NCBI GenBank assembly: GCA_031290885.1
Contig: JAISLQ010000012.1
Coordinates: forward strand, 1-60,442
Origin: Acidaminococcales bacterium
GTDB taxonomy: Bacteria > Bacillota > Negativicutes > Acidaminococcales > JAISLQ01
DNA: 60,442 nt
Reading direction: 5' to 3'
Part shown: positions 46,203-58,230 of the stretch, piece after piece
How the letters are laid out: every line of letters begins with the position of its first letter
Numbering within the stretch: the first letter of the stretch is position 1
Translations under genes and position numbers: made by a program
Notes under the pieces: model-generated
Seen by the model: only the letters and a program-made list of their open reading frames with translations
Databases searched by the model: none
What the model was told of the DNA's origin: nothing

Positions 46203-47000
46203 ATGCGCAAAGATAAAACCGCAAAAGATAGTAAATTGGTCATACTCTACCACCGTTCGTACCGCAAACTGCCCGGTTCGACCAAAATCTTTCTTTTGCA
46301 TTTTGCTCTTTTGGCTTTGCCCCTTTCTCTCTCTTCATTGTTTTTTTACCCCGAGATCACCGAGAAGATCTGCGTCATTGCCAAAAACGTCCTTGACCCT
46401 TATTATTACGCCGATTCGGTCAGCGTCCTGTCGCGAAAGTACATTGAAGGAATCGGCCCTCTTTTTTACGTCCAGGTGCCGGCGAGCTATCCATCCTATC
46501 TCTTTTCGCTCGGCAACGCGGTGGTTACCCTGTTTCTTCTGGCGGTACTGCCCAACATCGAAAAATTCAAGCCTTTTCTCATTTTCAGCCTTATCCTTTG
46601 CACGGTGCACATCGTATCGTCGTTGTACTTTCTTTTGTTCCCCGCTTATTTCCCTTATACCGGCGGCGATTATTCCCAGCTTTATATGCTGCAGGAAATC
46701 AGCATTTGGATTTTTATGCCCGTTATTATGGGGCTGGCCGTTTTGCCGATGCCTGTCAGCATTTTCCTCAAAGCCCTGGTAATGGTTTTTATTTATTTAT
46801 ATTCCCTTCTGTTCGGTCTGGTGCGCTATATTGTCTTTCTCATGATCGTTTCCAAAATATCCATGATTTACATGGCGCTTTTGTTTTTCGCGTTAGGGCC
46901 GCTCATCGACTTTATTTACGCGGTCGGCATTTACACGCTGTTTGTCAATAGAATCGCCAAAAATTTAGCGGAGGACTTTTCCTTGTGGAGATGGCAATAG
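46203..47000 (+). CDS. orphan polytopic membrane protein, first gene of the putative EPS operon
   Basis: About 6-7 hydrophobic segments; stop overlaps the GT2 start; start moved to MRKDK. Confidence 0.75.
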   Translation: MRKDKTAKDSKLVILYHRSYRKLPGSTKIFLLHFALLALPLSLSSLFFYPEITEKICVIAKNVLDPYYYADSVSVLSRKYIEGIGPLFYVQVPASYPSYLFSLGNAVVTLFLLAVLPNIEKFKPFLIFSLILCTVHIVSSLYFLLFPAYFPYTGGDYSQLYMLQEISIWIFMPVIMGLAVLPMPVSIFLKALVMVFIYLYSLLFGLVRYIVFLMIVSKISMIYMALLFFALGPLIDFIYAVGIYTLFVNRIAKNLAEDFSLWRWQ

Positions 47001-48265
47001 TATTAATGAAATGCTATATGCTGTTTACTGTGGCAGTGCTGGCGATATACACGGCTAGGCACTTTGTTTTCACGATCAACAGGCTTTTCGGCAAACAACG
47101 CATTTATTACCACGACATTATCGATTCCGACCTGCGCACGGTTACCGTCCTCATTCCTATGCACAACGAGGAAGCGGTCTGCCGCGATGTATTGGAGCGC
47201 ATGCTGCTCGTCGATTATGATTTTGCGAAGTTTGAAGTCATACCGATAAACGATTTTTCCGAGGACAAAACCAAAGAGATCCTGGAAGAATACGCCGCGC
47301 AATATCCCGACATCATCAAGCCGCTGCACCGCTACGAAGGCGAACGGGGCAAGCCGGCCGCCTTGAACGAGGCGCTGCAGGTGGCGCGGGGCGACATTAT
47401 TATCATTTTCGACGCCGACTATCTGCCGCCGCGCGGGATCATCAAAAATATCGCCGTATGTTTCAACGACCCGGAGGTCGGGGCGGTCATGGGCCGCGTC
47501 ATTCCTGTAAATACCCGGGTCAACCTCTTGACGCAGCTTTTGGATCTTGAGCGCTCCGGCGGCTACCAAGTGGACCAGCAGGCGCGCTGGAACATGCGCT
47601 TGGTGCCGCAGTACGGCGGGACGGTGGGAGGCTTTTTGCGGCAGGTGGTGATTGATCTTGGCTCTTTTAACGTCAAGATGCTGGCCGAGGACACCGAGCT
47701 GACCTTTCGGCTGACCCTGAATGGCTGGAAGGTAGCTTACGCCAACCGCGCCGAGTGTTATGAGGAAGCGCCCGAATCGTGGGCGGTGCGCGCCCGGCAA
47801 ATAAGGCGCTGGTCGCGCGGGCACAACGACGTCATGTTTAAGTACCTCTTGCCGATATTGCGTTCGGACTATATTCGCAGCAGGGAAAAAATAGATGCCC
47901 TGCTCCTGGCGGGCGTTTATGTCGTGCCTTTCATCCTGCTCTCGTGCATGGCCGTTTCCATGGTGCTGTTTTTTCTCGGCGAGATGGAAATCTTCGCCGG
48001 CGTCTTCTTTTTGGTCTTCATAGGCGTTTACAATACTTTCGGCAATTTCGCGCCCTTTTATCAGGTGGGCACGGGCTGCCTGCTCGACGGGATGAAACAG
48101 CGCACGCTGCTCATACCTTTTCTGCTTTTTAATTTTTATTTTTATATGTGGTACACCTCGCGCGGTTTTGCCGACGCCCTTTTGGACAGGATTACCCTGC
48201 GCCGGACGACTTGGCAGAAAACGGCGCGCTTTCGCGCCAAAACTGAGGGGCAAAAATCTTCATGA
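46991..48265 (+). CDS. processive family-2 glycosyltransferase (PgaC/IcaA/CesA-like synthase)
   Basis: PMHNEE, INDFSED, GKPAALN, FDADY (DxD), AEDTE (TED-like), RQIRRW (QxxRW); 1 N-terminal and several C-terminal TM helices; no PilZ domain. Confidence 0.92.
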   Translation: MAIVLMKCYMLFTVAVLAIYTARHFVFTINRLFGKQRIYYHDIIDSDLRTVTVLIPMHNEEAVCRDVLERMLLVDYDFAKFEVIPINDFSEDKTKEILEEYAAQYPDIIKPLHRYEGERGKPAALNEALQVARGDIIIIFDADYLPPRGIIKNIAVCFNDPEVGAVMGRVIPVNTRVNLLTQLLDLERSGGYQVDQQARWNMRLVPQYGGTVGGFLRQVVIDLGSFNVKMLAEDTELTFRLTLNGWKVAYANRAECYEEAPESWAVRARQIRRWSRGHNDVMFKYLLPILRSDYIRSREKIDALLLAGVYVVPFILLSCMAVSMVLFFLGEMEIFAGVFFLVFIGVYNTFGNFAPFYQVGTGCLLDGMKQRTLLIPFLLFNFYFYMWYTSRGFADALLDRITLRRTTWQKTARFRAKTEGQKSS

Positions 48266-49293
48266 TTGTGTTTTTTTGCATACTTTTCCTGGCATTCTCC
48301 TTCGTCTGGCCGTTTATCGGCGGCTGGCGCGAAATGCACGTGAGAAATGACGCCATACCGCTTTTCATCAACATGGATTACCTGAAGGATCCGCGCTATT
48401 TCGCCATATCTTTCCGGCGGTTCTTTAAAAATTTCCTCAACGACGAAGATTTGCGGGCCGGCATGTATGAATTGAAGTTTTCCAAACCGGAGAAGGTATG
48501 CGTGCTGGAAAATACTGTCATATCGCCGGAGCGGACGCTGGATGTCATTGCCTACGCGCGGCGCGACCTTGTAACGGAAAGAGGCGTGGCCTTTGAGAAG
48601 GAAGTCTATGTTCGCGGCAATGCCGCCATCGGCCCAAACAACGACCTGCGCGCTTTGGTTTGCGACGGCGACGTCTCTTTGGCGGGAAACACCGTTTTGC
48701 GCCGCTGGCTGGACGCCGAAGGCAACATCAGGGCCGGCGGGGGCTGCAATCTGGGCGTGAGCCTGACCAGCGGCAAAAAATGCCTGATAGCCGCCGGCTG
48801 TGTGTTCCGCCGCCTTTACGGCGCGCCCGTCCAAACGGGGACGAGCCGGAAAAAAAACTTTGCGCTCACGGCGGCCATCCGGGATGAGGACGAGCGGGTG
48901 TTTCCCCCGCCCCCCCTCGATGCCAAGGAGCGGCAGGTGGGGGAAATCTGGCCTTATACCAACACCCACTACAGCGTAATTACCCCCAATAGTCTTTGCG
49001 TCGGCTCCAATAGCCGTATCCTTGGGCATATCAAAACTTACGGCAACCTCAATATTGACGACAATGTGCTGATTACCGGCAATGTTTTCGCCGAAGGCGA
49101 TATTGCCATAGGCGTTTTTTGCAAAATATTGGGCGACATATTCGCCCAAGGCAGCGTCAGCATAGGCGAAGGATCGCAGGTGGGGCGTCCGGGAAAGGTC
49201 AAGTCGGTCGTCGGCAACCAAGCGGTGTTTTTGTCTTCAGGCGCCGTCGTTTATGGCTATGTTACCACGGAAGGCGATGGGCGCGCCTTATGA
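48262..49293 (+). CDS. membrane-anchored beta-helix protein (bactofilin / polymer-forming-like repeats)
   Basis: N-terminal TM, then GNAAIG, GDVSL, GNIRAG, GHIKTYGNLNI, GNVFAEGDIAIG, GDIFAQGSVSIG repeats; ATGA-coupled on both sides. Confidence 0.65.
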   Translation: MIVFFCILFLAFSFVWPFIGGWREMHVRNDAIPLFINMDYLKDPRYFAISFRRFFKNFLNDEDLRAGMYELKFSKPEKVCVLENTVISPERTLDVIAYARRDLVTERGVAFEKEVYVRGNAAIGPNNDLRALVCDGDVSLAGNTVLRRWLDAEGNIRAGGGCNLGVSLTSGKKCLIAAGCVFRRLYGAPVQTGTSRKKNFALTAAIRDEDERVFPPPPLDAKERQVGEIWPYTNTHYSVITPNSLCVGSNSRILGHIKTYGNLNIDDNVLITGNVFAEGDIAIGVFCKILGDIFAQGSVSIGEGSQVGRPGKVKSVVGNQAVFLSSGAVVYGYVTTEGDGRAL

Positions 49294-51374
49294 CCAAACT
49301 TTTGAGCGCCCTGCTTTTGGCATCCATTGTAGCGCTTCTGGCGTACGCCGTCCCCAACTACTATAAGCTGAAAGATATCGCCGCCGACAATTCGTTGCGC
49401 GCGCTCGTTGTTTACAACGAGGAGAGCCTGGAAAAAGACGGGTATATCTTAAAGGCATACCAAAGCGTGCTGGCGGAGGAAGGCGTTCCGCATAAAGCTA
49501 TCGAGGTATTTGATTTGCTCAACATGGAGCCGGGCAACATGGCCGCCGTCGTGCCGGCGCTGATCTTCCCGGACGGCATCATGCAGGTTGTGCCTTCGGA
49601 ATTTATCGAGTGGATAAAAACATACATGAACGAAGGCGGCAACGTGGCCGTAATCTATGATGCCGGCACCAAGCACGGCCGGGGATTTTTTGAAAAAAAG
49701 GCTGTTTTCGCGGATATTACCGGCTTAAACTACATTCTGACCGATAAATTGGAGTACGATTTGTTGGAAAAAGGACAGATTGTCTTTACATCGGCCGAAC
49801 GGCGCGACGCTTTTCAGATCCCTTTGGGGAAAACTTTGGGAGGGCGGGTTCTCAGCAGTTATTTTTTCGGCGCTTTGGAGTATCCTGTCTATATGAACGA
49901 AAGGACGCGCCAAATACCGGACAAAGACATTTACGCCGAGGCTTTTATTACCGGGACCGAACAAAAAATACCGGCGATCGTCCTTGCCGGCTACGGCAAG
50001 GGGCAAGTCCTGTACGTCAACCTGCCGCTTGGCCAGGCAAAGGCGAGAGGGGACGACCTGCCGCTCAGGGCCTCCCTGCGCGCCTTCTTGTTTGACGCCG
50101 TGGGCATGCCGCACATCATGAACGTGGAAGGCGGCAAGGGGACGCTCTTGATCAACTGGCACGTGGATTCCCGGCAGGAAATATACAACCTGCCCAAACT
50201 TTTCGACACGCCGATTTTCGCCAAGGAACTCCAAGCCACCTACCATATAACCGCCGGCGATTTTTTGAACTGGGAAGGGGACGATGGCGGCTTCTTCGTC
50301 CGGGAAAGGGGGCGCGCCCTGACGGAAGAGATGGCGGAGCGGGGAGAAGTCGGCTCGCACGGCGGCTGGGCGCACAATTGGTTTTCTTTGCTCCTGATGG
50401 ACGGCCGATTGAGCAAAGACGCTATAAAGAAACATATCAAGGACAACAACGACGACATTGAGGCGGTTACCGGGCAAAAGGTTACTTCCTATTCCGCGCC
50501 CAACGGCGTGCATCCGCAGCCGCTTTTGACCAACATAATAAAAGACTTGGGCATCATTGCCTACTACTACACGGGCGACACGGGCAGCGCCCCGCACCGG
50601 GCCTTTTTCGGCGATGAGATGATCAGCCCGCGCGTGGTCGCCTTCCCCATAATGCCTTTCGGCCGGGCGGCGTCTTTATGGGAAATGTATGATAAATACG
50701 AACTGCCTTTTGAGGAAATAAATTATTTTTACCACAATCTCCTCGACTATTTGGAAAAAAACAAGAGCGCGCGCCTTATTTACTCGCATCCGGTCGACAT
50801 AGTGGATGAATATATCCAGTTAATGTCGGATTTTTCCCAGGATGCCATTGACCGCGCGGCCGCAGGCAGGCTCAGGCTTTCCGGCATGAGCGAATACAGC
50901 CGCTTCTTCTTGCGCATGCTCAACACCGAATATAGTTTTGCCATTGAAGGCCCGGCGTTGAAAATCTCCCTGGCCAATCCCGAAAGCCTGCGAGGGATAA
51001 CCTTTGCCGTCCCCAAAAACAAATACAGCTATAGTTACCCGAAGCAGCGGCCAAATGTTTCCCTCCCCCGCCAACAAAGGCCGAGGCCGGGAAGTTCCTG
51101 GAGCTACCAGTGGCGCGGCCGCCACTATTATCGCTTAGGGCCTGACGGCAAGCCGCTTGTCGAAGCGTACGGCCAAGAAGAAGGGCCGGACGGGGAAAGC
51201 TTTGCGGAAACGGCAACCGATCCCGCGCCAAGGCTGGAAGAATCCGCGGCGCAGGACGGGGAAGGCGCAGCGCGGGCAGAACCCGGCGTATCGGTCGCCG
51301 AAGACGAAAAATACTACTATATAACTATAAACGACGACAGCAAGGAGAAGCTTTTCGCGATGGCAGCAAAATGA
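49290..51374 (+). CDS. polysaccharide deacetylase, PelA/Agd3-like architecture, copy 1 (catalytic motifs intact)
   Basis: N-terminal signal/TM, alpha/beta domain, then WHVDS, GSHGGWAH, YSAPNG, LIYSHP (NodB-like motifs); start moved to MTKLL. Confidence 0.8.
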   Translation: MTKLLSALLLASIVALLAYAVPNYYKLKDIAADNSLRALVVYNEESLEKDGYILKAYQSVLAEEGVPHKAIEVFDLLNMEPGNMAAVVPALIFPDGIMQVVPSEFIEWIKTYMNEGGNVAVIYDAGTKHGRGFFEKKAVFADITGLNYILTDKLEYDLLEKGQIVFTSAERRDAFQIPLGKTLGGRVLSSYFFGALEYPVYMNERTRQIPDKDIYAEAFITGTEQKIPAIVLAGYGKGQVLYVNLPLGQAKARGDDLPLRASLRAFLFDAVGMPHIMNVEGGKGTLLINWHVDSRQEIYNLPKLFDTPIFAKELQATYHITAGDFLNWEGDDGGFFVRERGRALTEEMAERGEVGSHGGWAHNWFSLLLMDGRLSKDAIKKHIKDNNDDIEAVTGQKVTSYSAPNGVHPQPLLTNIIKDLGIIAYYYTGDTGSAPHRAFFGDEMISPRVVAFPIMPFGRAASLWEMYDKYELPFEEINYFYHNLLDYLEKNKSARLIYSHPVDIVDEYIQLMSDFSQDAIDRAAAGRLRLSGMSEYSRFFLRMLNTEYSFAIEGPALKISLANPESLRGITFAVPKNKYSYSYPKQRPNVSLPRQQRPRPGSSWSYQWRGRHYYRLGPDGKPLVEAYGQEEGPDGESFAETATDPAPRLEESAAQDGEGAARAEPGVSVAEDEKYYYITINDDSKEKLFAMAAK

Positions 51375-52324
51375 ACGTCACGGCTTGTTTTCGGCAAAAT
51401 AAAAACGCGGCCAAAGGCCGGATCCTTCTGGCGCTGCTGCTGGCGGCTATTTTGTTCCCTTTCCCGGCGGCGGCCGAAGGGGCGGACGACAGGCACCCCG
51501 CCATAACGCTGATGGGCTATTATGACAAGGAATGGCCGCGCATGGACTTCTTTGAGCCGCACGCGGTATCCCTCCTCGCCCTCAATGAATTGGAAAACGG
51601 CCGCCATTTCAAAGAAGTAAAGGTTTTCCTCAAATGGTATTTTTCCCACCTCAATTATCCCGACAAACACGGCTTTACCGGCACGATTTATGATTATGAG
51701 TTCAAATGGGGGAAGGAACAGGCCACCAGAAAATACTCGTCCATAAACGCTTACGCCGGGCGGTTTCTCTATCTTCTGGCCCGATACGCCGAAATTACCG
51801 GCGACAAGGCTTTTATCGCCAAAAACATCAAAAAAATCAATGACATTGCTTATACAATAGTCGTCCTGATTGACAAAGACGGCCTGACGCGCAGCCTGCC
51901 CACCATTGACCTGAAAAGGCTCACGGACAACTGCGAAGCCTACGGAGGCCTTAAAGCCTACGGGCGCCTGCTCCTTTACGCGAAAGCCAAAACCCCGCCT
52001 TTTTTGCCAATCGTATTGGAAGGCCTGGCGGCCGCCATAGCGGCCCTTTATGACCCGAAAGAAAATACTTTCGCCCAAAGCGTGCTGGACGGGCGGACGA
52101 AGGCGGCGCCCTGGGCGGACTGCCCGGGCGCGTTCGCGCAGCTTTATGCCGTCTTTTACGGCCTGCTGGACGGCGATCCGGAACTGGCGGAAGAATTTTG
52201 GTATAATTTCAATCTGGCCCACGCCGAAAGCATGGGCCGCGCCGCCCTGCCGGAAAAGCTGTTCTACCTTCTTACGGAAAAAAAGGCGGGCGTACGTTAT
52301 ATTGAACACGCTATTTTAAAATAA
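51371..52324 (+). CDS. secreted (alpha/alpha)6-barrel glycoside-hydrolase-like protein, copy 1 (acidic residues substituted)
   Basis: Signal peptide; WYFSHLNYPD, FLYLLARYAEITGD, DNCEAYGG; clear paralog of 55966-56871. Confidence 0.6.
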   Translation: MNVTACFRQNKNAAKGRILLALLLAAILFPFPAAAEGADDRHPAITLMGYYDKEWPRMDFFEPHAVSLLALNELENGRHFKEVKVFLKWYFSHLNYPDKHGFTGTIYDYEFKWGKEQATRKYSSINAYAGRFLYLLARYAEITGDKAFIAKNIKKINDIAYTIVVLIDKDGLTRSLPTIDLKRLTDNCEAYGGLKAYGRLLLYAKAKTPPFLPIVLEGLAAAIAALYDPKENTFAQSVLDGRTKAAPWADCPGAFAQLYAVFYGLLDGDPELAEEFWYNFNLAHAESMGRAALPEKLFYLLTEKKAGVRYIEHAILK

Positions 52325-52367
52325 TCTTTCATGGGGTATAATAGAAAGCTGGAAAGGATGATGCGCC

Positions 52368-54125
52368 ATGTTCAAGAAGATTCTGCCGGCAGCCCTTTTG
52401 TCCGCCTTGCCTGCCCTCTCCGCCGTCTACGCCGCTACGGCGATTGATGCGCCGATAGCCGCGCGCGACACGGCGGAGGCGATAAGGGAGGAAGCGAAAA
52501 GCCTTCTGGCAACGGAAAAATATGACCACGAGCTTAGAAATTCCATAAAAGAGATGGATCGGCAGATCCGCGATTTAAAGGGGCGTTTGCCGGCTGCCCG
52601 CGCCAACCTTGACGCCGCAAGCGGCACTATGTCGTCGGTCAGTTTGGGCAGAGAAGAAATTGAGCGGGAACTGGCAGACGCGCAGCGGCGTTTCGACGAG
52701 GCGAGGGCGGAAACTGACGCCTGGCAAGCCAGCCTGGTCGAGGCAGAGGAGCGGGTGTCCGATGCCCGGTCTCATTTGGAGTCCATGCGGGATTTTGGGC
52801 GCAGGTCCCGGCGGCCGGAGGACGATTATAAAGTTTCTAAGGCGGAAGAAAGAATGCAAGCCGCCGAAGAAAACCGCGATGCAATCGCCATGGAGCACGC
52901 CCACGCCGAAATCCGCATGGCGGAAGCGCAGGCAGACTTGGAAAAATATGCGGACATGCGCGACAAATTAAACGATGCGGGCCCTCTTTACGAAGACGCG
53001 CGGATCGTTCTCGCCGATCTGGAAAGGGACATAGAACTTCTCGAGAACGAACGGGCGGCGGCCGCCGCCCGTCTGGATGAAGCGCGCCGCCCGGCTAAAA
53101 TCGGCGACCGCCGCTGGCAATATGCCATGGCCGACATGGAATATTACAGCTGGAAGGATTCCCGGCAGCACAAAGGGCGCCAGCTCTATCTGCCGGTGCA
53201 GTACGGCTACGTTGACGGCGCTCTCAGTTACGGCGTCAGCGGCGGCTATATAAGCTCCGACAGCAACCTGCCAAATGGCAAGGTATCTACCTTAGATGAC
53301 GTTACGCTTTCTTTCGCCTACGAAAAAATATATAAAAATTTTGAGGCCGTTTATACCCTGGCGGTAAACACGCCTACGGGAAAAAGGACTTTGTACGGCT
53401 CCAACGCGGTCATGCCCGAAGATCTTGTGCGCAAGCCGCGTTTCGGCGAAGGCTGGAACTTCACCCCCGGCGTGTTGCTCAGCTGGCGCGTCAAACCGGA
53501 AGACACTTGGAGCTTAGGGCTTAATTATTCCATCAACGGCAGGTACCGCTACGACAGCAGCATCCCGGGCGGCTATACCCATCCGGCCAACGGCCTCGGC
53601 GTCATGGGCCGCTACAAGCACGCCGGGGCAACCGACCAGTTTGTCGGCGAACTTTATTTCACAGGCTACACCCATGCGAAAGACAACGGGGTAAAATACC
53701 GTTCGGGCAGCCAGATCGAGCCGCATTTGCTTTACAACCGCGTGCTGGACGGCAAAAACGACCTCATGTTTTATTACTGGTTCTCGCGAAGCGGCGCGCC
53801 CAGTTCCCGCGACCCCGGTTTTGTTCCGGGCCGTGCTTCCAACGCGCATTTTTTCGGTACCATGTGGAGCAGGAAACTCAACGCCAAAAGCACTTTGCAT
53901 ATCACCGCCGACTACATGAAACGCACGGGCATCCCGTACGATCCGCTTACTAATTACTCCGCCCTGCCCGACCACAACAAATTTACCTACGGCGTAAAAT
54001 ACGACTACCGCCTGAATTCCGACAGCAAAATATCCCTGCACCTGCAACGCTTTAACCTGCGCGACAGCGGCGGCAACAAATACAGAGGGAACAATGTCTA
54101 TGTGTTTTACAGCGTGTATTGGTAA
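52368..54125 (+). CDS. outer-membrane beta-barrel with a long N-terminal coiled coil
   Basis: Signal peptide; about 240 aa Ala/Glu/Arg helical segment; alternating aromatic beta-strand pattern; ends VYVFYSVYW (beta-signal). Confidence 0.75.
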   Translation: MFKKILPAALLSALPALSAVYAATAIDAPIAARDTAEAIREEAKSLLATEKYDHELRNSIKEMDRQIRDLKGRLPAARANLDAASGTMSSVSLGREEIERELADAQRRFDEARAETDAWQASLVEAEERVSDARSHLESMRDFGRRSRRPEDDYKVSKAEERMQAAEENRDAIAMEHAHAEIRMAEAQADLEKYADMRDKLNDAGPLYEDARIVLADLERDIELLENERAAAAARLDEARRPAKIGDRRWQYAMADMEYYSWKDSRQHKGRQLYLPVQYGYVDGALSYGVSGGYISSDSNLPNGKVSTLDDVTLSFAYEKIYKNFEAVYTLAVNTPTGKRTLYGSNAVMPEDLVRKPRFGEGWNFTPGVLLSWRVKPEDTWSLGLNYSINGRYRYDSSIPGGYTHPANGLGVMGRYKHAGATDQFVGELYFTGYTHAKDNGVKYRSGSQIEPHLLYNRVLDGKNDLMFYYWFSRSGAPSSRDPGFVPGRASNAHFFGTMWSRKLNAKSTLHITADYMKRTGIPYDPLTNYSALPDHNKFTYGVKYDYRLNSDSKISLHLQRFNLRDSGGNKYRGNNVYVFYSVYW

Positions 54126-54149
54126 CGAAACCATCGCCGCTATGCGCCG

Positions 54150-56003
54150 ATGAAGAAACTGCTCGTTTTTCCCTGCTTGCTCCTATTGGCGGCCGCCGCT
54201 TACTTCGGGCCGGTTGCCTACACCAGATGGCTGTGGTCGCAAGACAGGGAAATGTCCGCCTTTCTTTTGTACAACCCCAAAGATCTGGAAGCGGCCGCCT
54301 ACATCGCCGAAGCTTACACGAGCGTGCTTGAAGAGGAAGGGGTTGCCCTGCGCAAAATCGAAGCGGGCGAAATAGTGCGCCTTGACGCCTCCAAGCTCGC
54401 CGGCCGCATACCGGCGCTCATTCTGCCCGATGGCATTCTGCAGGCGACGCCCGGCGGTTTTGCCGCCTGGGTGGACGAATATTTGGCCGCCGGCGGCAAT
54501 GTCGCCGTAGTATACGACGTGGGGACGAAGAATTCACGGGGCAGGTTTCGGGAACGCGCGGAACTGGCTGACATTGCCGGGCTCAATTACATCATGCCCA
54601 GTATAAAGGGCAGGCATCCTTATGTGTCCGCCAAAATACAATTTGCCGCCAAAGCCGATTGGGATTTTTTCCAATGCACTCCCGGCCGGGACATGCTGGA
54701 CTTTACTTTGAACGGCCTAAACGGGGATGCAGCCAAATACAGCGTAGCTTACAACAAAATCATCAGGGAATCCGTCAGGGGGGACATCCGCGCCTGGGCG
54801 GTTACGGACGCGGGGGAGAAATTGCCCGTCCTTGTCCTTTCCGACTATAAAAAAGGCAAGGTGCTTTACGTCAACCTGCCGCTCGGCCATTTGAAAGCTA
54901 CCTCCGACGACATGACCATCCGCTCGGTCATGCGAGCCTTCCTTTTCGACGTCGCCTTCATGCCGCGCCTAATCAATGTTGAGGACGGCATCGGCGGCTT
55001 GGTGCTCAATTTGCATTTTTCCCTGCGCATGGATGATGAAGATCTGCAAGCGCACATAGAACGCGGCTTTTTAAACGACAAGGTCCCTGTTTCCATTCAC
55101 ATCGCCGCTGCGGACTATCTGGAGGCGCCGGGCGATGGTTTGGGCTTTGACGCGGCCGGGCATGGGCGGGAACAGGTCAGGATATTGTCAGGCTATGGCA
55201 GAATAGGGTCTTTGGGCGGCATGGCCAACAACTGGTTTGCCGCCAAAGTGGAAAGCGCCGCGTTCGGCGCGCTGGAAATAAAAGAAAACATAGCCGCCAA
55301 CAATAAGATATTGGAGGAGATAACCGGCTATAAAATTACGGAGTATTCCGCGCCGGCCGGAGTGCACCCGCAGCCGGCCATGACCAGGGCGCTGGAGGAG
55401 TTGGGCATGACCGGTTATTCATACGCCTATGAGCTTTCCGCCGCGCCCAACCGCACTTTCGTCAACCGGCGCCGCATCAGCGGCAAGGCAATCGCCTTTC
55501 CGCAGTTAAGTTACCACCGTTACCGTTCTTTGTGGGAACTTTATTTTGTGAGCGGAAGCAACAACGACTATTTTGAAGAACCGCTCAACCGTTGGCTGCA
55601 AGATGAACTATTGCCCTATCTTGCGCGCCACAAGACGGTCAGGACCCTGGTGATACGAGAACACAACATGTTCGCTTTCCCCACGGCGCTGAAAAACCTC
55701 ATGGAATCTCTGGCGGGCGAGCCGGGCGCGGAAAAAGTGGCGGCGCTGACCATGAGCGGGTACGCCGATTTTTTGCTGCGCTTTTTAAAGACGGAATACA
55801 CCTTTACCCAAAACACGGAAGGGCTGGCGCTTGACTTGAAAAATCCGGAGGCGCTGCGGGGGATCGTGCTCGCCCTGCCCAAAGCCAAATACGGCAAGCC
55901 GCCAGGCGACGGCCTTGCCGTTTCCGAAGACGAAAAATGTTATTATGTAAAGGTGGAAAACCCTGATGCAAAAGAAAAAATTATTAATATCCCTTTTAGT
56001 TAG
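54150..56003 (+). CDS. polysaccharide deacetylase paralog, copy 2 (metal ligands lost)
   Basis: Colinear with 49290-51374 (KGKVLYVNLPLG, YSAPAGVHPQP) but LHFS, GSLGGMAN and VIRE at the motif positions. Confidence 0.75.
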   Translation: MKKLLVFPCLLLLAAAAYFGPVAYTRWLWSQDREMSAFLLYNPKDLEAAAYIAEAYTSVLEEEGVALRKIEAGEIVRLDASKLAGRIPALILPDGILQATPGGFAAWVDEYLAAGGNVAVVYDVGTKNSRGRFRERAELADIAGLNYIMPSIKGRHPYVSAKIQFAAKADWDFFQCTPGRDMLDFTLNGLNGDAAKYSVAYNKIIRESVRGDIRAWAVTDAGEKLPVLVLSDYKKGKVLYVNLPLGHLKATSDDMTIRSVMRAFLFDVAFMPRLINVEDGIGGLVLNLHFSLRMDDEDLQAHIERGFLNDKVPVSIHIAAADYLEAPGDGLGFDAAGHGREQVRILSGYGRIGSLGGMANNWFAAKVESAAFGALEIKENIAANNKILEEITGYKITEYSAPAGVHPQPAMTRALEELGMTGYSYAYELSAAPNRTFVNRRRISGKAIAFPQLSYHRYRSLWELYFVSGSNNDYFEEPLNRWLQDELLPYLARHKTVRTLVIREHNMFAFPTALKNLMESLAGEPGAEKVAALTMSGYADFLLRFLKTEYTFTQNTEGLALDLKNPEALRGIVLALPKAKYGKPPGDGLAVSEDEKCYYVKVENPDAKEKIINIPFS

Positions 56004-56871
56004 CCTGGCCGCTTTTGGCCGACTGTCCGCCGCCGCCCACCCAGCTGACGACGTCATTGGCTCTTACGCCGGCGAGCTCTCTTACGCCGGCCAAATCGAG
56101 CCTTACATAACCGGCCTTTTTGCCCTCAGCGCGTTGGAACATGGACGCGACGCGGACAAGGTGCGGGCTTTCATCGAATGGTATTTCGCTAACCTCAACT
56201 ATCCCGACCGCTACAACATCAACGCCACCATCTATGTTTATGAAAGGGACGGGGAAGATCTCTCCCCAAGTTACGCCTATGATTCCATTGACGGCTATTC
56301 CGGCCTTTTCCTTCACCTTCTGCTGCGGTATGCAAAAGCTACGGGCGATCTGTCCATAGTGTCCGATAATTGGCAAAAAGTGGAAGACACGGCCTATACC
56401 ATTGCGCTTTTGCAGGAAGGGGACGGCCTGACCATCGCGCTCATCACGACCAACCAGAAATATCTTATGGACAATTGCGAGGCTTACGGCGGCATATCGG
56501 CCTATATAGAGCTTCGCAAGCTGATGGGCCTGCCGCCGAGCCCTTCCTACGAAAACATCCGCGCCGGCATCAAGCGCGGCATAATGAAACGGATGTACCG
56601 GAAAAAAGATCGGATTTTTGTCCACACGATTGAGAACGACATTGTCGAGGATGCCGATTGGAACACTTATTACCCGGACGCTTATGCGCAGCTTTTCCCG
56701 ATCTATTACGACCTGCTTGAGGACAACCCGGATTTAGCCAAACAGCTTTGGCGCTATTTTTCCGAAAAGCACGCCGCCAACGAAAATTCTTTCCCGGTCG
56801 AACAGCGCGCCATGTTTCAGTTGACCAGAAACAAGGCGCGGGCGAAATATCCGGACCTGTTCCCTAAATAG
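55966..56871 (+). CDS. secreted (alpha/alpha)6-barrel glycoside-hydrolase-like protein, copy 2 (acidic motifs intact)
   Basis: Signal peptide; WYFANLNYPD, YDSIDGY, YLMDNCEAY, YYPDAYAQLF. Confidence 0.65.
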   Translation: MQKKKLLISLLVSLAAFGRLSAAAHPADDVIGSYAGELSYAGQIEPYITGLFALSALEHGRDADKVRAFIEWYFANLNYPDRYNINATIYVYERDGEDLSPSYAYDSIDGYSGLFLHLLLRYAKATGDLSIVSDNWQKVEDTAYTIALLQEGDGLTIALITTNQKYLMDNCEAYGGISAYIELRKLMGLPPSPSYENIRAGIKRGIMKRMYRKKDRIFVHTIENDIVEDADWNTYYPDAYAQLFPIYYDLLEDNPDLAKQLWRYFSEKHAANENSFPVEQRAMFQLTRNKARAKYPDLFPK

Positions 56872-57072
56872 GATCCGTCAACGCTATCCGAAACATTCAG
56901 ATTTCGAGCGAATTTTTCGTCAGGCGCGGCGCAAAACGCAGGCGAATCCCTATGTTAAGCGCGGCTTTAGCGCAAAGCGCGGCGGGAAACTATCCAAAAG
57001 ATGGGCGTTGGACGGCAGTGTTTACGGCCTAACCCGGCATCTATGCCAAACCAATAAAAAGAGGTGCTTTTT

Positions 57073-58230
57073 TTGCCCAAAATCAAACTGGCGGCTATTT
57101 TCGGCACAAGGCCGGAAGCGATCAAAATGGCGCCCGTAGTGCTGGCAATGAAAAAATATCCGGAATACATCGATCCTTTTGTCATTGTAACCGCCCAGCA
57201 CCGGGAAATGCTTGACCATGTACTGGATCTTTTTCAAATAAGGCCCGATTTTGACCTCAATATCATGACCCAGCGCCAAACGCTTTTTGAAATAAGTATC
57301 CGTGCCCTGCAAGGGCTTGGTGAGGCCCTGGGGGAAATAAAGCCTGACCTGGCGCTTGTGCACGGCGACACGACTACCACCTTTATCGGCGCGCTGGCCG
57401 CTTTTTACCGGCAGATAGAAGTTGGCCACGTGGAAGCGGGGCTGCGTACCGGGAACAAATACTCGCCTTTCCCGGAAGAAATTAACCGCCACCTGACCGG
57501 GAGCTTGGCCGATCTGCATTTTGCCCCCACCAGCGCGGCCCGCGAAAACCTCCTGAAAGAAAACATAGCGGCCGGCAATATTTTTATCACCGGCAATACG
57601 GTAATTGACGCCTTGAAAGCCACCGTGCGCGACGATTATGAGTTTGAGCACCCGGCGCTGCGCGAGTGCGTCACGAAAAAAGCGCGGATCGTCCTCGTTA
57701 CCGCCCACCGCCGCGAAAACCTGGGCGAACCATTGCTCGCCATCTACCGGGCATTGGCCAAAATCGTGGACGGGCATCCCGACATTGAAGTAATTTTTCC
57801 CCTGCATAAAAACCCCGCGGTCCGGGAACCGGCGCAGGCTATCCTGGGCGCGAAAAAGCGCGTACATCTTATCGAGCCTTTGGATTACGGGCCTTTTGTC
57901 AACCTTATGTACAGATCTTATATGCTTTTGAGCGATTCCGGCGGCGTGCAGGAAGAAGCGCCGGCCCTCGGCAAGCCGGTATTGGTTTTGCGCGGCAACA
58001 CCGAGCGGCCGGAAGCGCTCCGGGCCGGCACGGTCAAGCTGGCCGGTACGCATACCGACACTATTTGCCGCCTTGCCCATGAACTGCTGGCCGACCCAAG
58101 CGCCTACAAAGAAATGGCGGAAGCCGTCAACCCTTACGGCGACGGGCTGGCGGCGGAAAGAATTGTCCGCACGATTTTGTTCCGCCGCGCCATCCTGCCG
58201 CAGCCCCCGGAATACTTTCGCGATCATTGA
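57073..58230 (+). CDS. wecB: UDP-N-acetylglucosamine 2-epimerase (non-hydrolysing)
   Basis: FGTRPEAIKMAP, TAQHREML, VHGDTTT, HVEAGLRT, SDSGGVQEEAP, NPYGDG. Confidence 0.96.
   Translation: MPKIKLAAIFGTRPEAIKMAPVVLAMKKYPEYIDPFVIVTAQHREMLDHVLDLFQIRPDFDLNIMTQRQTLFEISIRALQGLGEALGEIKPDLALVHGDTTTTFIGALAAFYRQIEVGHVEAGLRTGNKYSPFPEEINRHLTGSLADLHFAPTSAARENLLKENIAAGNIFITGNTVIDALKATVRDDYEFEHPALRECVTKKARIVLVTAHRRENLGEPLLAIYRALAKIVDGHPDIEVIFPLHKNPAVREPAQAILGAKKRVHLIEPLDYGPFVNLMYRSYMLLSDSGGVQEEAPALGKPVLVLRGNTERPEALRAGTVKLAGTHTDTICRLAHELLADPSAYKEMAEAVNPYGDGLAAERIVRTILFRRAILPQPPEYFRDH

Follow-up and report, generated by a model that had tools for sequence, protein, structure and literature searches.

In the Pel, poly-N-acetylglucosamine (PNAG) and alginate systems, the periplasmic enzymes modifying the exopolysaccharide double as parts of the export machine, and these two roles are hard to separate genetically. 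PelA, PgaB, AlgG and AlgL are each single proteins that join catalytic and structural roles. Carbohydrate-active paralogues can also lose catalysis and keep their fold for binding or structure, as exemplified by chi-lectins such as YKL-40 and by the pseudo-deacetylases BA0330/BA0331 of Bacillus anthracis and SwsB of B. subtilis. Here, we analysed a DNA stretch of 60,442 nucleotides from an uncultured member of the Acidaminococcales, which are diderm Firmicutes (contig JAISLQ010000012.1 of assembly GCA_031290885.1; hereafter the window), in which a module of a deacetylase-like gene (D) and a hydrolase-like gene (H) occurs twice on the + strand. The first copy comprises D1 (49290..51374, 694 residues) and H1 (51371..52324, 317 residues), and the second copy D2 (54150..56003, 617 residues) and H2 (55966..56871, 301 residues). 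D1 and H2 have kept the invariant residues of their families, whereas D2 and H1 have lost invariant residues of theirs. Unlike in the cases of YKL-40, BA0330/BA0331 and SwsB, the degeneration here concerns two enzyme families, each in the other copy of the duplicated D-H pair, and D2 and H1 lie in what seems to be a single secretion operon beside their presumably active paralogues. We estimate a probability of about 70% that D1 is a working de-N-acetylase and H2 a working glycosidase, with D2 and H1 being non-catalytic.

The closest described protein to D is PelA of the Pseudomonas Pel system, a CE21 deacetylase combined with a GH166 hydrolase (PDB 9cgy, PMC12022489). The earlier note on this DNA had named PelA among the candidates for structural comparison, and PelA of Pseudomonas thermotolerans was indeed the top Protein Data Bank (PDB) match when the AlphaFold2 model of D1 was searched with Foldseek (610 columns, E 7e-10, 12% identity). 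ArnD, HP0310 and other CE4 proteins came next, together with GH42/GH164 enzymes for the N-terminal domain. The model has a predicted local distance difference test (pLDDT) score of 85.6, falling below 50 for residues 585-663, and consists of an N-terminal transmembrane helix, a GATase1/GH42M-like domain (~35-270), a CE4-like barrel (~280-545) and a beta-sandwich containing the insert 585-663. D and PelA share the order of an accessory alpha/beta domain, a CE4-like barrel and a beta-rich C-terminal domain, as well as a His two residues ahead of the Asp of CE4 motif 1 (MT1), two MT2 His residues and the MT5 His. By analogy, D might act in the periplasm as PelA does, modifying an amino-sugar polymer that a synthase has made, and the coupling of deacetylase and hydrolase in PelA has a counterpart in a D-H fusion described below. 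D differs from PelA in having no N-terminal GH166 TIM-barrel: the D1 model contains no such hydrolase domain, so that it matches the remaining three of the four PelA domains, and the partner hydrolase-like protein, of six-hairpin fold, is encoded by a gene of its own. Its MT1 reads H-x-D with one Asp rather than H-x-D-x-D, its MT2 has the H-x4-H spacing of PgaB, it is anchored by an N-terminal transmembrane helix, and the synthase here belongs to glycosyltransferase family 2 (GT2) rather than being a GT4 enzyme like PelF. The likeness to PelA is one of fold, as sequence and profile searches of the PDB, whether with D1 or H2, with the full alignment of either family or with an alignment of the CE4 domain only, gave nothing significant, including for PelA.

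The PgaB/PgaC pair of the PNAG system resembles the locus in its PgaC/IcaA-type GT2, its CE4-type deacetylase with H-x4-H, its pairing of a deacetylase with a glycosidase and its export through an outer-membrane barrel. In contrast to the PNAG system, the GT2 stays below the equivalog cut-off for PgaC (TIGR03937, 129.3 bits vs 422.3 required), the hydrolase partner has a six-hairpin fold instead of the GH153 (beta/alpha) barrel, and the porin carries a coiled coil instead of tetratricopeptide repeats. The frequent linkage to WecB suggests N-acetylmannosamine (ManNAc) over N-acetylglucosamine (GlcNAc) as the sugar. We rejected identity with B. subtilis YdaL (DUF2194), because PF09960 was not among the Pfam matches of the D family, and with the Listeria Pss system, because no GH126 protein was among the top 50 Foldseek matches to H2; GH126 is the family of PssZ in that system.

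The paralogy of the two modules, claimed in the earlier note, is evident from the pairwise alignments: D1 and D2 are 37% identical across 554 residues (E 5e-117), and H1 and H2 are 36% identical across 298 residues (E 1e-61). All the motifs quoted there were recovered at their coordinates when computed from the open reading frames (ORFs), with the anchors W290 (50157) and G355 (50352) in D1, L288 (55011) and G353 (55206) in D2, Y122 (51734) in H1 and Y105 (56278) in H2. The layout D1-H1-porin-D2-H2 with the same reciprocal pattern was found in three further independent assemblies, namely a same-genus metagenome-assembled genome (L001/L005) and two metagenomic contigs (L002/L003 and L004), which rules out an assembly or sequencing artefact.

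Conservation in the D family, numbered according to D1, was derived from a multiple sequence alignment of 118 homologues and from 76 single-copy genomic loci. H291, D293, H357, H362, D430 and H500 are essentially invariant in both sets, and W290, H291, D293, H357, W360, H362, Y426, D430, Y498, S499 and H500 are conserved at 97-100% among the homologues. D1 retains all 11 of these residues, with H291 and D293 in the WHVDS motif (50157-50171), H357 and H362 at 50358-50375, D430 at 50577 and H500 at 50787. D2 retains H291 alone. As the earlier note had stated, the Asp and both His are gone from D2, where S291 (55020), L355 (55212) and N360 (55227), in the numbering of D2 itself, take their places; in addition, E428 (55431) replaces D430 and R503 (55656) replaces H500. 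The Asp-His-His metal triad and the MT5 His (D293, H357, H362 and H500) are therefore present in D1 and absent from D2. PelA loses its esterase activity when the equivalent Asp and His residues are changed to Ala (PMC12022489). In the D1 model, H291/D293 follow the strand 284-292, H357 closes the strand 353-357, Y426 ends the strand 424-427 with D430 just after it, H500 follows the strand 494-499, and H362 opens the helix after H357. The invariant residues are thus located at the C-terminal ends of the barrel strands, which are the positions of the CE4 motifs MT1, MT2, MT4 and MT5. The substitutions in the degenerate copies could have been dismissed if the positions varied among single-copy homologues or lay away from the modelled active sites. 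They are instead invariant in both the D and H families, and are located where such folds have their active sites.

A loss like that in D2 is rare within the family. Among the columns conserved at ≥95% (n=104), D2 deviates at 27 and D1 at 4. An exhaustive HMMER scan with D2 against 1.84 billion cluster representatives found 252 relatives, and among the 148 retrieved for inspection the set H-D-H-H-x-H is near universal; wholesale loss as in D2 occurs in only about three of the 148 sequences, one of which is D2 of L004. D1 matches the Pfam family Polysacc_deac_1 (PF01522) with 34.2 bits against a cut-off of 23.1, as do 28 of 30 homologues, and half of its relatives also match the GH42 middle domain. 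D2 has no Pfam match at E <= 0.01. The remainder of D2 is nevertheless well conserved, since the mean identity of its CE4 domain to the family is 40% compared with 44% for D1. All four D2 orthologues retain 90 of 139 conserved columns, and 19 columns are altered in all four, including D293, H357, H362, Y426 and Y498/S499. This conservation elsewhere indicates that the loss was focused on the active site and on a hairpin (178-199) of the N-terminal domain. The former catalytic positions differ between the four orthologues (S/F/Y/Y, V/M/A/F and R/N/N/H), which counts against a new active site and for a simple loss of catalysis in a protein that is retained for another purpose.

The beta-hairpin 178-199 of D1 (49821-49886; residues 177-198 of D2) contains the family-invariant P178, K181, Y191, G194 and L196, several of which have been replaced, identically across the four D2 orthologues, by T, D or A. 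This suggests that the hairpin co-operates with the active site of D1 and was remodelled along with it in D2. In distant D subfamilies (P0274, P0277, P0293, P0313, P0338 etc.), the D293/H357 pair is replaced by Cys/His, Cys/Gln or Glu/Asp, giving H-C-H-H, H-C-Q-H or H-E-D-H, and D430 by Asn, His or Ser; these variant ligand sets may be alternative metal sites or shifts in the alignment. The insert of D1 (585-663, 51042..51278), located within the C-terminal beta-sandwich, is a disordered, lineage-specific segment of ~80 residues rich in Pro, Arg, Gln and Glu, and is present only in close relatives including L001. D proteins with this insert are ~700 residues long, compared with ~612 residues for homologues elsewhere.

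For the H family, numbered according to H2, an alignment of 113 homologues identified Y47, D106, D109, Y166, Y236 and D238 as conserved at 99-100%. H2 has all six: Y47, D106/D109 (56281-56292), Y166 in the segment 56461-56481 that also encodes D169, N170 and E172, and Y236/D238 (56671-56679). In H1, the corresponding states are His, Ser, Asn, Arg, a gap and Gly (H64; S123 and N126, 51737-51748; R183, 51917; G253), so that D106-S-I-D109 of H2 reads S-S-I-N. The D-N-x-E motif is kept in both copies (D169, N170 and E172 of H2; D186, N187 and E189 of H1). The family has five invariant carboxylates, D106, D109, D169, E172 and D238. The model of H2 (pLDDT 94.2) is an all-alpha (alpha/alpha)n barrel of ~11 helices, and its Foldseek matches were MmpH (7qsj), GH78, GH76, GH100 invertase and the AGE family, with a probability of 1.0 and template-modelling (TM) scores of 0.45-0.59. 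The invariant residues lie at the N termini of every second helix (46, 108, 167 and 235), the usual location of active sites in six-hairpin enzymes. The closest fold is that of MmpH, the endo-alpha-1,4-mannosidase of Mycolicibacterium hassiacum, which requires a DxxD pair (D47, D50) and E262 (PMC9883506). MmpH, too, is a small (alpha/alpha)6 protein with a DxxD pair and an ExxE/DxxE-type motif, D106/D109 of H2 being the putative counterparts of its D47/D50 by motif. It differs from H2 in its low similarity (14% identity, TM ~0.55), its cytoplasmic location and its substrate, methylmannose polysaccharide.

The H family might not consist of glycoside hydrolases at all, its members being lyases, polymer-level epimerases or purely structural periplasmic proteins. 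H2 has no match in Pfam, NCBIfam or PDB sequence searches, and AGE-type epimerases and linalool dehydratase score in Foldseek about as well as glycosidases (TM ~0.45-0.57). (Alpha/alpha)n barrels are also known to house lyases, such as AlgL of PL5. However, the five invariant carboxylates include the MmpH-like DxxD pair, a faint match to an MGH1-like GH domain was found for 6 of 35 family members, a glycosidase is the usual neighbour of a deacetylase in synthase-dependent exopolysaccharide operons, and the D-H fusion mirrors PelA and PgaB. We consider a non-hydrolytic H family unlikely. Were it so, the loss of hydrolase residues in H1 would be mis-described, yet the loss of invariant residues would stand.

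Returning to a reciprocal loss of catalysis in D2 and H1, the phylogeny indicates how it might have come about. In a maximum-likelihood tree, D1 and D2 each make up a clade of four sequences with 100% support in the SH-like approximate likelihood-ratio test (SH-aLRT); the two clades have the same internal topology and are nested with single-copy sequences from Sporomusaceae, Veillonellaceae and Nitrospirota. The H1 and H2 clades are sisters (97-99% SH-aLRT) of congruent topology. The trees thus show that the D-H pair was duplicated once. H357L is shared by all four D2 sequences, which have also lost D293, H362, Y426 and Y498; with these losses common to the four lineages, D2 was inactivated before the lineages split. 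H1 has a different history. Its losses at invariant sites are D106N and D169N in L002 and D109G and Y166K in L004, whereas in the lineage of the window D106, D109 and Y166 are lost in all members and Y47 and Y236/D238 in some members only. Judged from these substitutions, the decay of H1 was later than that of D2, stepwise and independent in each lineage. The reciprocal degeneration proposed for H1 thus holds, but not as one ancestral event, being graded and lineage-specific, with two substitutions each in L002 and L004.

Selection on the four genes was estimated by the Nei-Gojobori method against the same-genus genome as the ratio of nonsynonymous to synonymous substitution rates (dN/dS); dS was unsaturated, at 0.40-0.65 overall and 0.57-0.65 for D1, D2, H1 and H2. 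dN/dS is 0.23 for D1, 0.265 for D2, 0.187 for H1, 0.15 for H2 and 0.10 for the GT2 gene, which places both degenerate copies under purifying selection, and the divergence among orthologues is equal for D2 and D1 (51% vs 51%). The view that both degenerate copies are full-length proteins with export signals was borne out: the frames are intact and full length in the four D2 and four H1 orthologues of the dual-module assemblies and in four more H1 homologues of 315-318 residues, and signal/anchor sequences are kept. In sequence terms, D2 and H1 thus fit the operational definition of a pseudoenzyme, in which invariant residues are lost under purifying selection.

Purifying selection would also be compatible with neofunctionalisation, in which D2, H1 or both are still enzymes with another chemistry or specificity. 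H1 could, for instance, act on the deacetylated polymer via D186/E189, and D2 could be a metal-independent esterase or transferase. The replacements H357L, P178T, G194D, L196A, T320A and L496T are identical in all four D2 orthologues, pointing to a new constraint; H1 retains the D-N-C-E motif and Q257, and the wider D family tolerates the ligand sets H-C-H/Q-H and H-E-D-H. On the other hand, the former catalytic positions of D2 are hydrophobic or variable across orthologues with no new conserved polar constellation, and H1 orthologues drop different invariant residues by lineage, as expected for a relaxed rather than a redirected catalytic constraint. We find new enzymatic functions for D2 or H1 rather improbable, slightly more so than a non-hydrolytic H family. 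It is most improbable that D2 and H1 are functionless pseudogenes in slow decay, as might be supposed from the lost active-site residues and the faster stems after the duplication (D2 0.40 vs D1 0.17; H1 of the window/L001 lineage 0.73 vs H2 0.36), and we reject this on the dN/dS of 0.19-0.27, comparable to that of the active paralogues, and on the orthologues with intact frames, retained signal/anchor sequences and translationally coupled genes.

We therefore favour reciprocal pseudoenzymes, with good support in the case of D2 and as a probability in that of H1. The earlier assignment of an intact deacetylase with a degenerate hydrolase-like protein to module 1, and the converse to module 2, is upheld as far as residue invariance goes, while the label of hydrolase draws on that invariance and on the DxxD analogy with MmpH. 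In the mechanism that we propose, the basic unit found in many phyla would consist of a membrane protein, a GT2 synthase, a beta-helix protein and D, often with H and WecB. D would be a membrane-anchored deacetylase like PelA minus its hydrolase domain, built of the GATase1/GH42M-like domain, the CE4-like barrel and the beta-sandwich, and the small exported six-hairpin protein H would most likely cleave the polymer as an endo-glycosidase. A single ancestral duplication of the D-H pair led to D1-H1-porin-D2-H2. Before the four known lineages diverged, the metal ligands (Asp, His and His) and the MT5 His disappeared from D2; H1 was stripped of invariant carboxylates and tyrosines later, each lineage through substitutions of its own. 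D1 would de-N-acetylate the polymer and H2 would cleave it. D2 and H1, having kept their folds and most residues of the groove, may serve the trans-envelope machine as subunits that bind the polymer or act as scaffolds, with the active paralogues, or the porin whose gene they flank, as possible partners. Such a role in polymer binding or as scaffold of a periplasmic complex, perhaps with the active paralogues or the porin, we put forward tentatively, and it is somewhat more doubtful that D2 and H1 are obligate non-catalytic subunits pairing with the active paralogues or docking on the coiled-coil porin. Because the GH42M-like domain is a trimerisation domain in GH42 enzymes, pairing of the paralogues is plausible.

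Several points weigh against this interpretation. The D family does not have the canonical MT1 TFDD with its adjacent catalytic-base Asp, nor the MT3 Arg: its MT1 consensus is N-W-H-[VI]-D-S with one Asp, and its MT2 spacing H-x4-H. H291 or another residue may substitute as the base, by analogy with H526, the proposed catalytic-base substitute of PelA (PMC12022489). The term pseudo-hydrolase for H1 depends on the invariance and on the DxxD analogy with MmpH, from which we infer the catalytic residues of H. Binding and residual or altered activity of H1 are possible, especially in L002 and L004: half of the conserved site persists, D186, N187 and E189 are kept, and the orthologues in L002 and L004 have two substitutions each at invariant sites. 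The placing of residues in the models is based on secondary-structure positions. The reciprocity is a single event with odds of ~50% once one D and one H have been lost. Finally, loci of the Phascolarctobacterium type encode the porin but no pseudoenzyme, so the porin has no general need of dead adaptors.

Pseudoenzyme paralogues and dual-role exopolysaccharide modification enzymes are known concepts, and literature searches on the cassette and on pseudo-deacetylases found no description of this system. What is new is the reciprocal arrangement in one duplicated module, its conservation, and two protein families in a widespread cassette: a PelA-like deacetylase with the signature H-x-D / H-x4-H / H and small six-hairpin proteins for which there is no Pfam model. 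Beyond the weak CE4 match of D, neither family matches a named Pfam or NCBIfam family. Here, one paralogue apparently keeps the chemistry and the other the fold alone. If so, D2 and H1 would be ready-made separation-of-function alleles for probing the non-catalytic role, and the module a case of reciprocal subfunctionalisation of two genes. Were the pseudoenzymes obligate subunits, the machine would be made of enzyme/pseudoenzyme pairs, and this would be the first natural split of scaffold/chaperone and catalytic roles onto paralogous genes in a synthase-dependent exopolysaccharide system.

The two modules belong to a series of nine co-directional genes on the + strand (46203-58230), which is probably the periplasmic modification/export half of a synthase-dependent exopolysaccharide operon. 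A small polytopic membrane protein (46203..47000, start taken at MRKDK) is encoded first; it has no match in Pfam or NCBIfam, and its orthologue precedes the GT2 gene in nearly all of 80 related loci. It is followed by the GT2 processive-type glycosyltransferase, the putative polymer synthase (46985..48265, Pfam Glyco_tranf_2_3 6e-33), and by a beta-helix protein resembling bactofilins or left-handed beta-helices (48262..49293, weak Bactofilin match of 0.0022 and hexapeptide-transferase matches), whose gene overlaps both neighbours by 4 bp and sits between GT2 and D in all loci. Between D1, the membrane-anchored PelA-like/CE4-superfamily deacetylase, with H1, its exported six-hairpin-like neighbour, and the full-length pseudo-deacetylase D2 with the exported, glycosidase-like H2 lies the gene of the outer-membrane protein referred to as the porin (52368..54125). 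This protein has a signal peptide, a coiled coil of ~220 residues and a beta-barrel-like C-terminal half ending in an aromatic residue, and gave coiled-coil-type matches only in Pfam and NCBIfam. The UDP-GlcNAc 2-epimerase WecB (57064..58230, Pfam Epimerase_2 6.7e-114) adjoins the cassette; its linkage suggests a polymer containing ManNAc, which is probably de-N-acetylated in part. Overlaps at several junctions, including beta-helix/D1 (4 bp), D1/H1 (4 bp) and D2/H2 (38 bp), indicate a single operon. A look-up of public sequencing runs listed none for the region. The genes upstream are unrelated, comprising ECF transporter genes and truA on the other strand, as well as clpB and ddl.

A pattern scan that covered a single genome for each species retrieved 80 loci (L005-L084) from many phyla, and profile searches were then run on the six-frame ORFs of these loci. 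The order membrane protein, GT2, beta-helix protein and D is conserved across at least 13 named phyla, among them Nitrospirota, Bacillota, Aquificota, Elusimicrobiota, Campylobacterota, Acidobacteriota, Actinomycetota and Myxococcota. The cassette is present in the cultured strains Phascolarctobacterium faecium DSM 14760 (L051), Sporomusa malonica DSM 5090 (L058), S. aerivorans DSM 13326 (L015) and Hydrogenobacter sp. RSW1 (L040). H directly follows D in most of the 80 loci, WecB is adjacent in roughly half, and nearly all have a single intact D and a single intact H. A homologue of the porin was found in the dual-module loci and the Phascolarctobacterium-type loci L050/L051, but in none of the others. 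The genome of the window contains no D copies other than D1 and D2.

Some loci depart from the common arrangement. In a Candidatus Ratteibacteria metagenome-assembled genome, an ORF of 907 residues (L028:9929-12649) fuses a complete D (22-639) to a complete H (638-906), which supports the view that D and H are coupled, be it physically or in function, and makes the pair an analogue of the bifunctional PelA and PgaB. A frame of 644 residues (L042:10895-12826) has two tandem H domains, the first canonical and the second with D106E and N170D. There are three further independent duplications. One, in an uncultured member of the Clostridia (L039:7855-13521), has a degenerate H followed by D, D and H, with both D intact. 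In the others, a degenerate D lies upstream of an intact D-H pair in Cloacimonadales (L073:3-4034), and a degenerate H fragment upstream of D-H in L043. By their sequences, pseudoenzyme paralogues seem to be recurrent in this system. A same-family genome (G002:C31:65834-66637, L089) encodes a frame of 283 residues with the N-terminal GATase1-like domain of D only (E 1.6e-38), which is either a truncated gene or a domain on its own. A search with PF03537, the Pfam family taken here to represent the hydrolase domain of PelA, found no Pseudomonas among the control genomes. On another contig of the genome of the window, a short frame (G000:C48:3646-3996, L092) matches this family (Glyco_hydro_114, GH114) with 45.5 bits.

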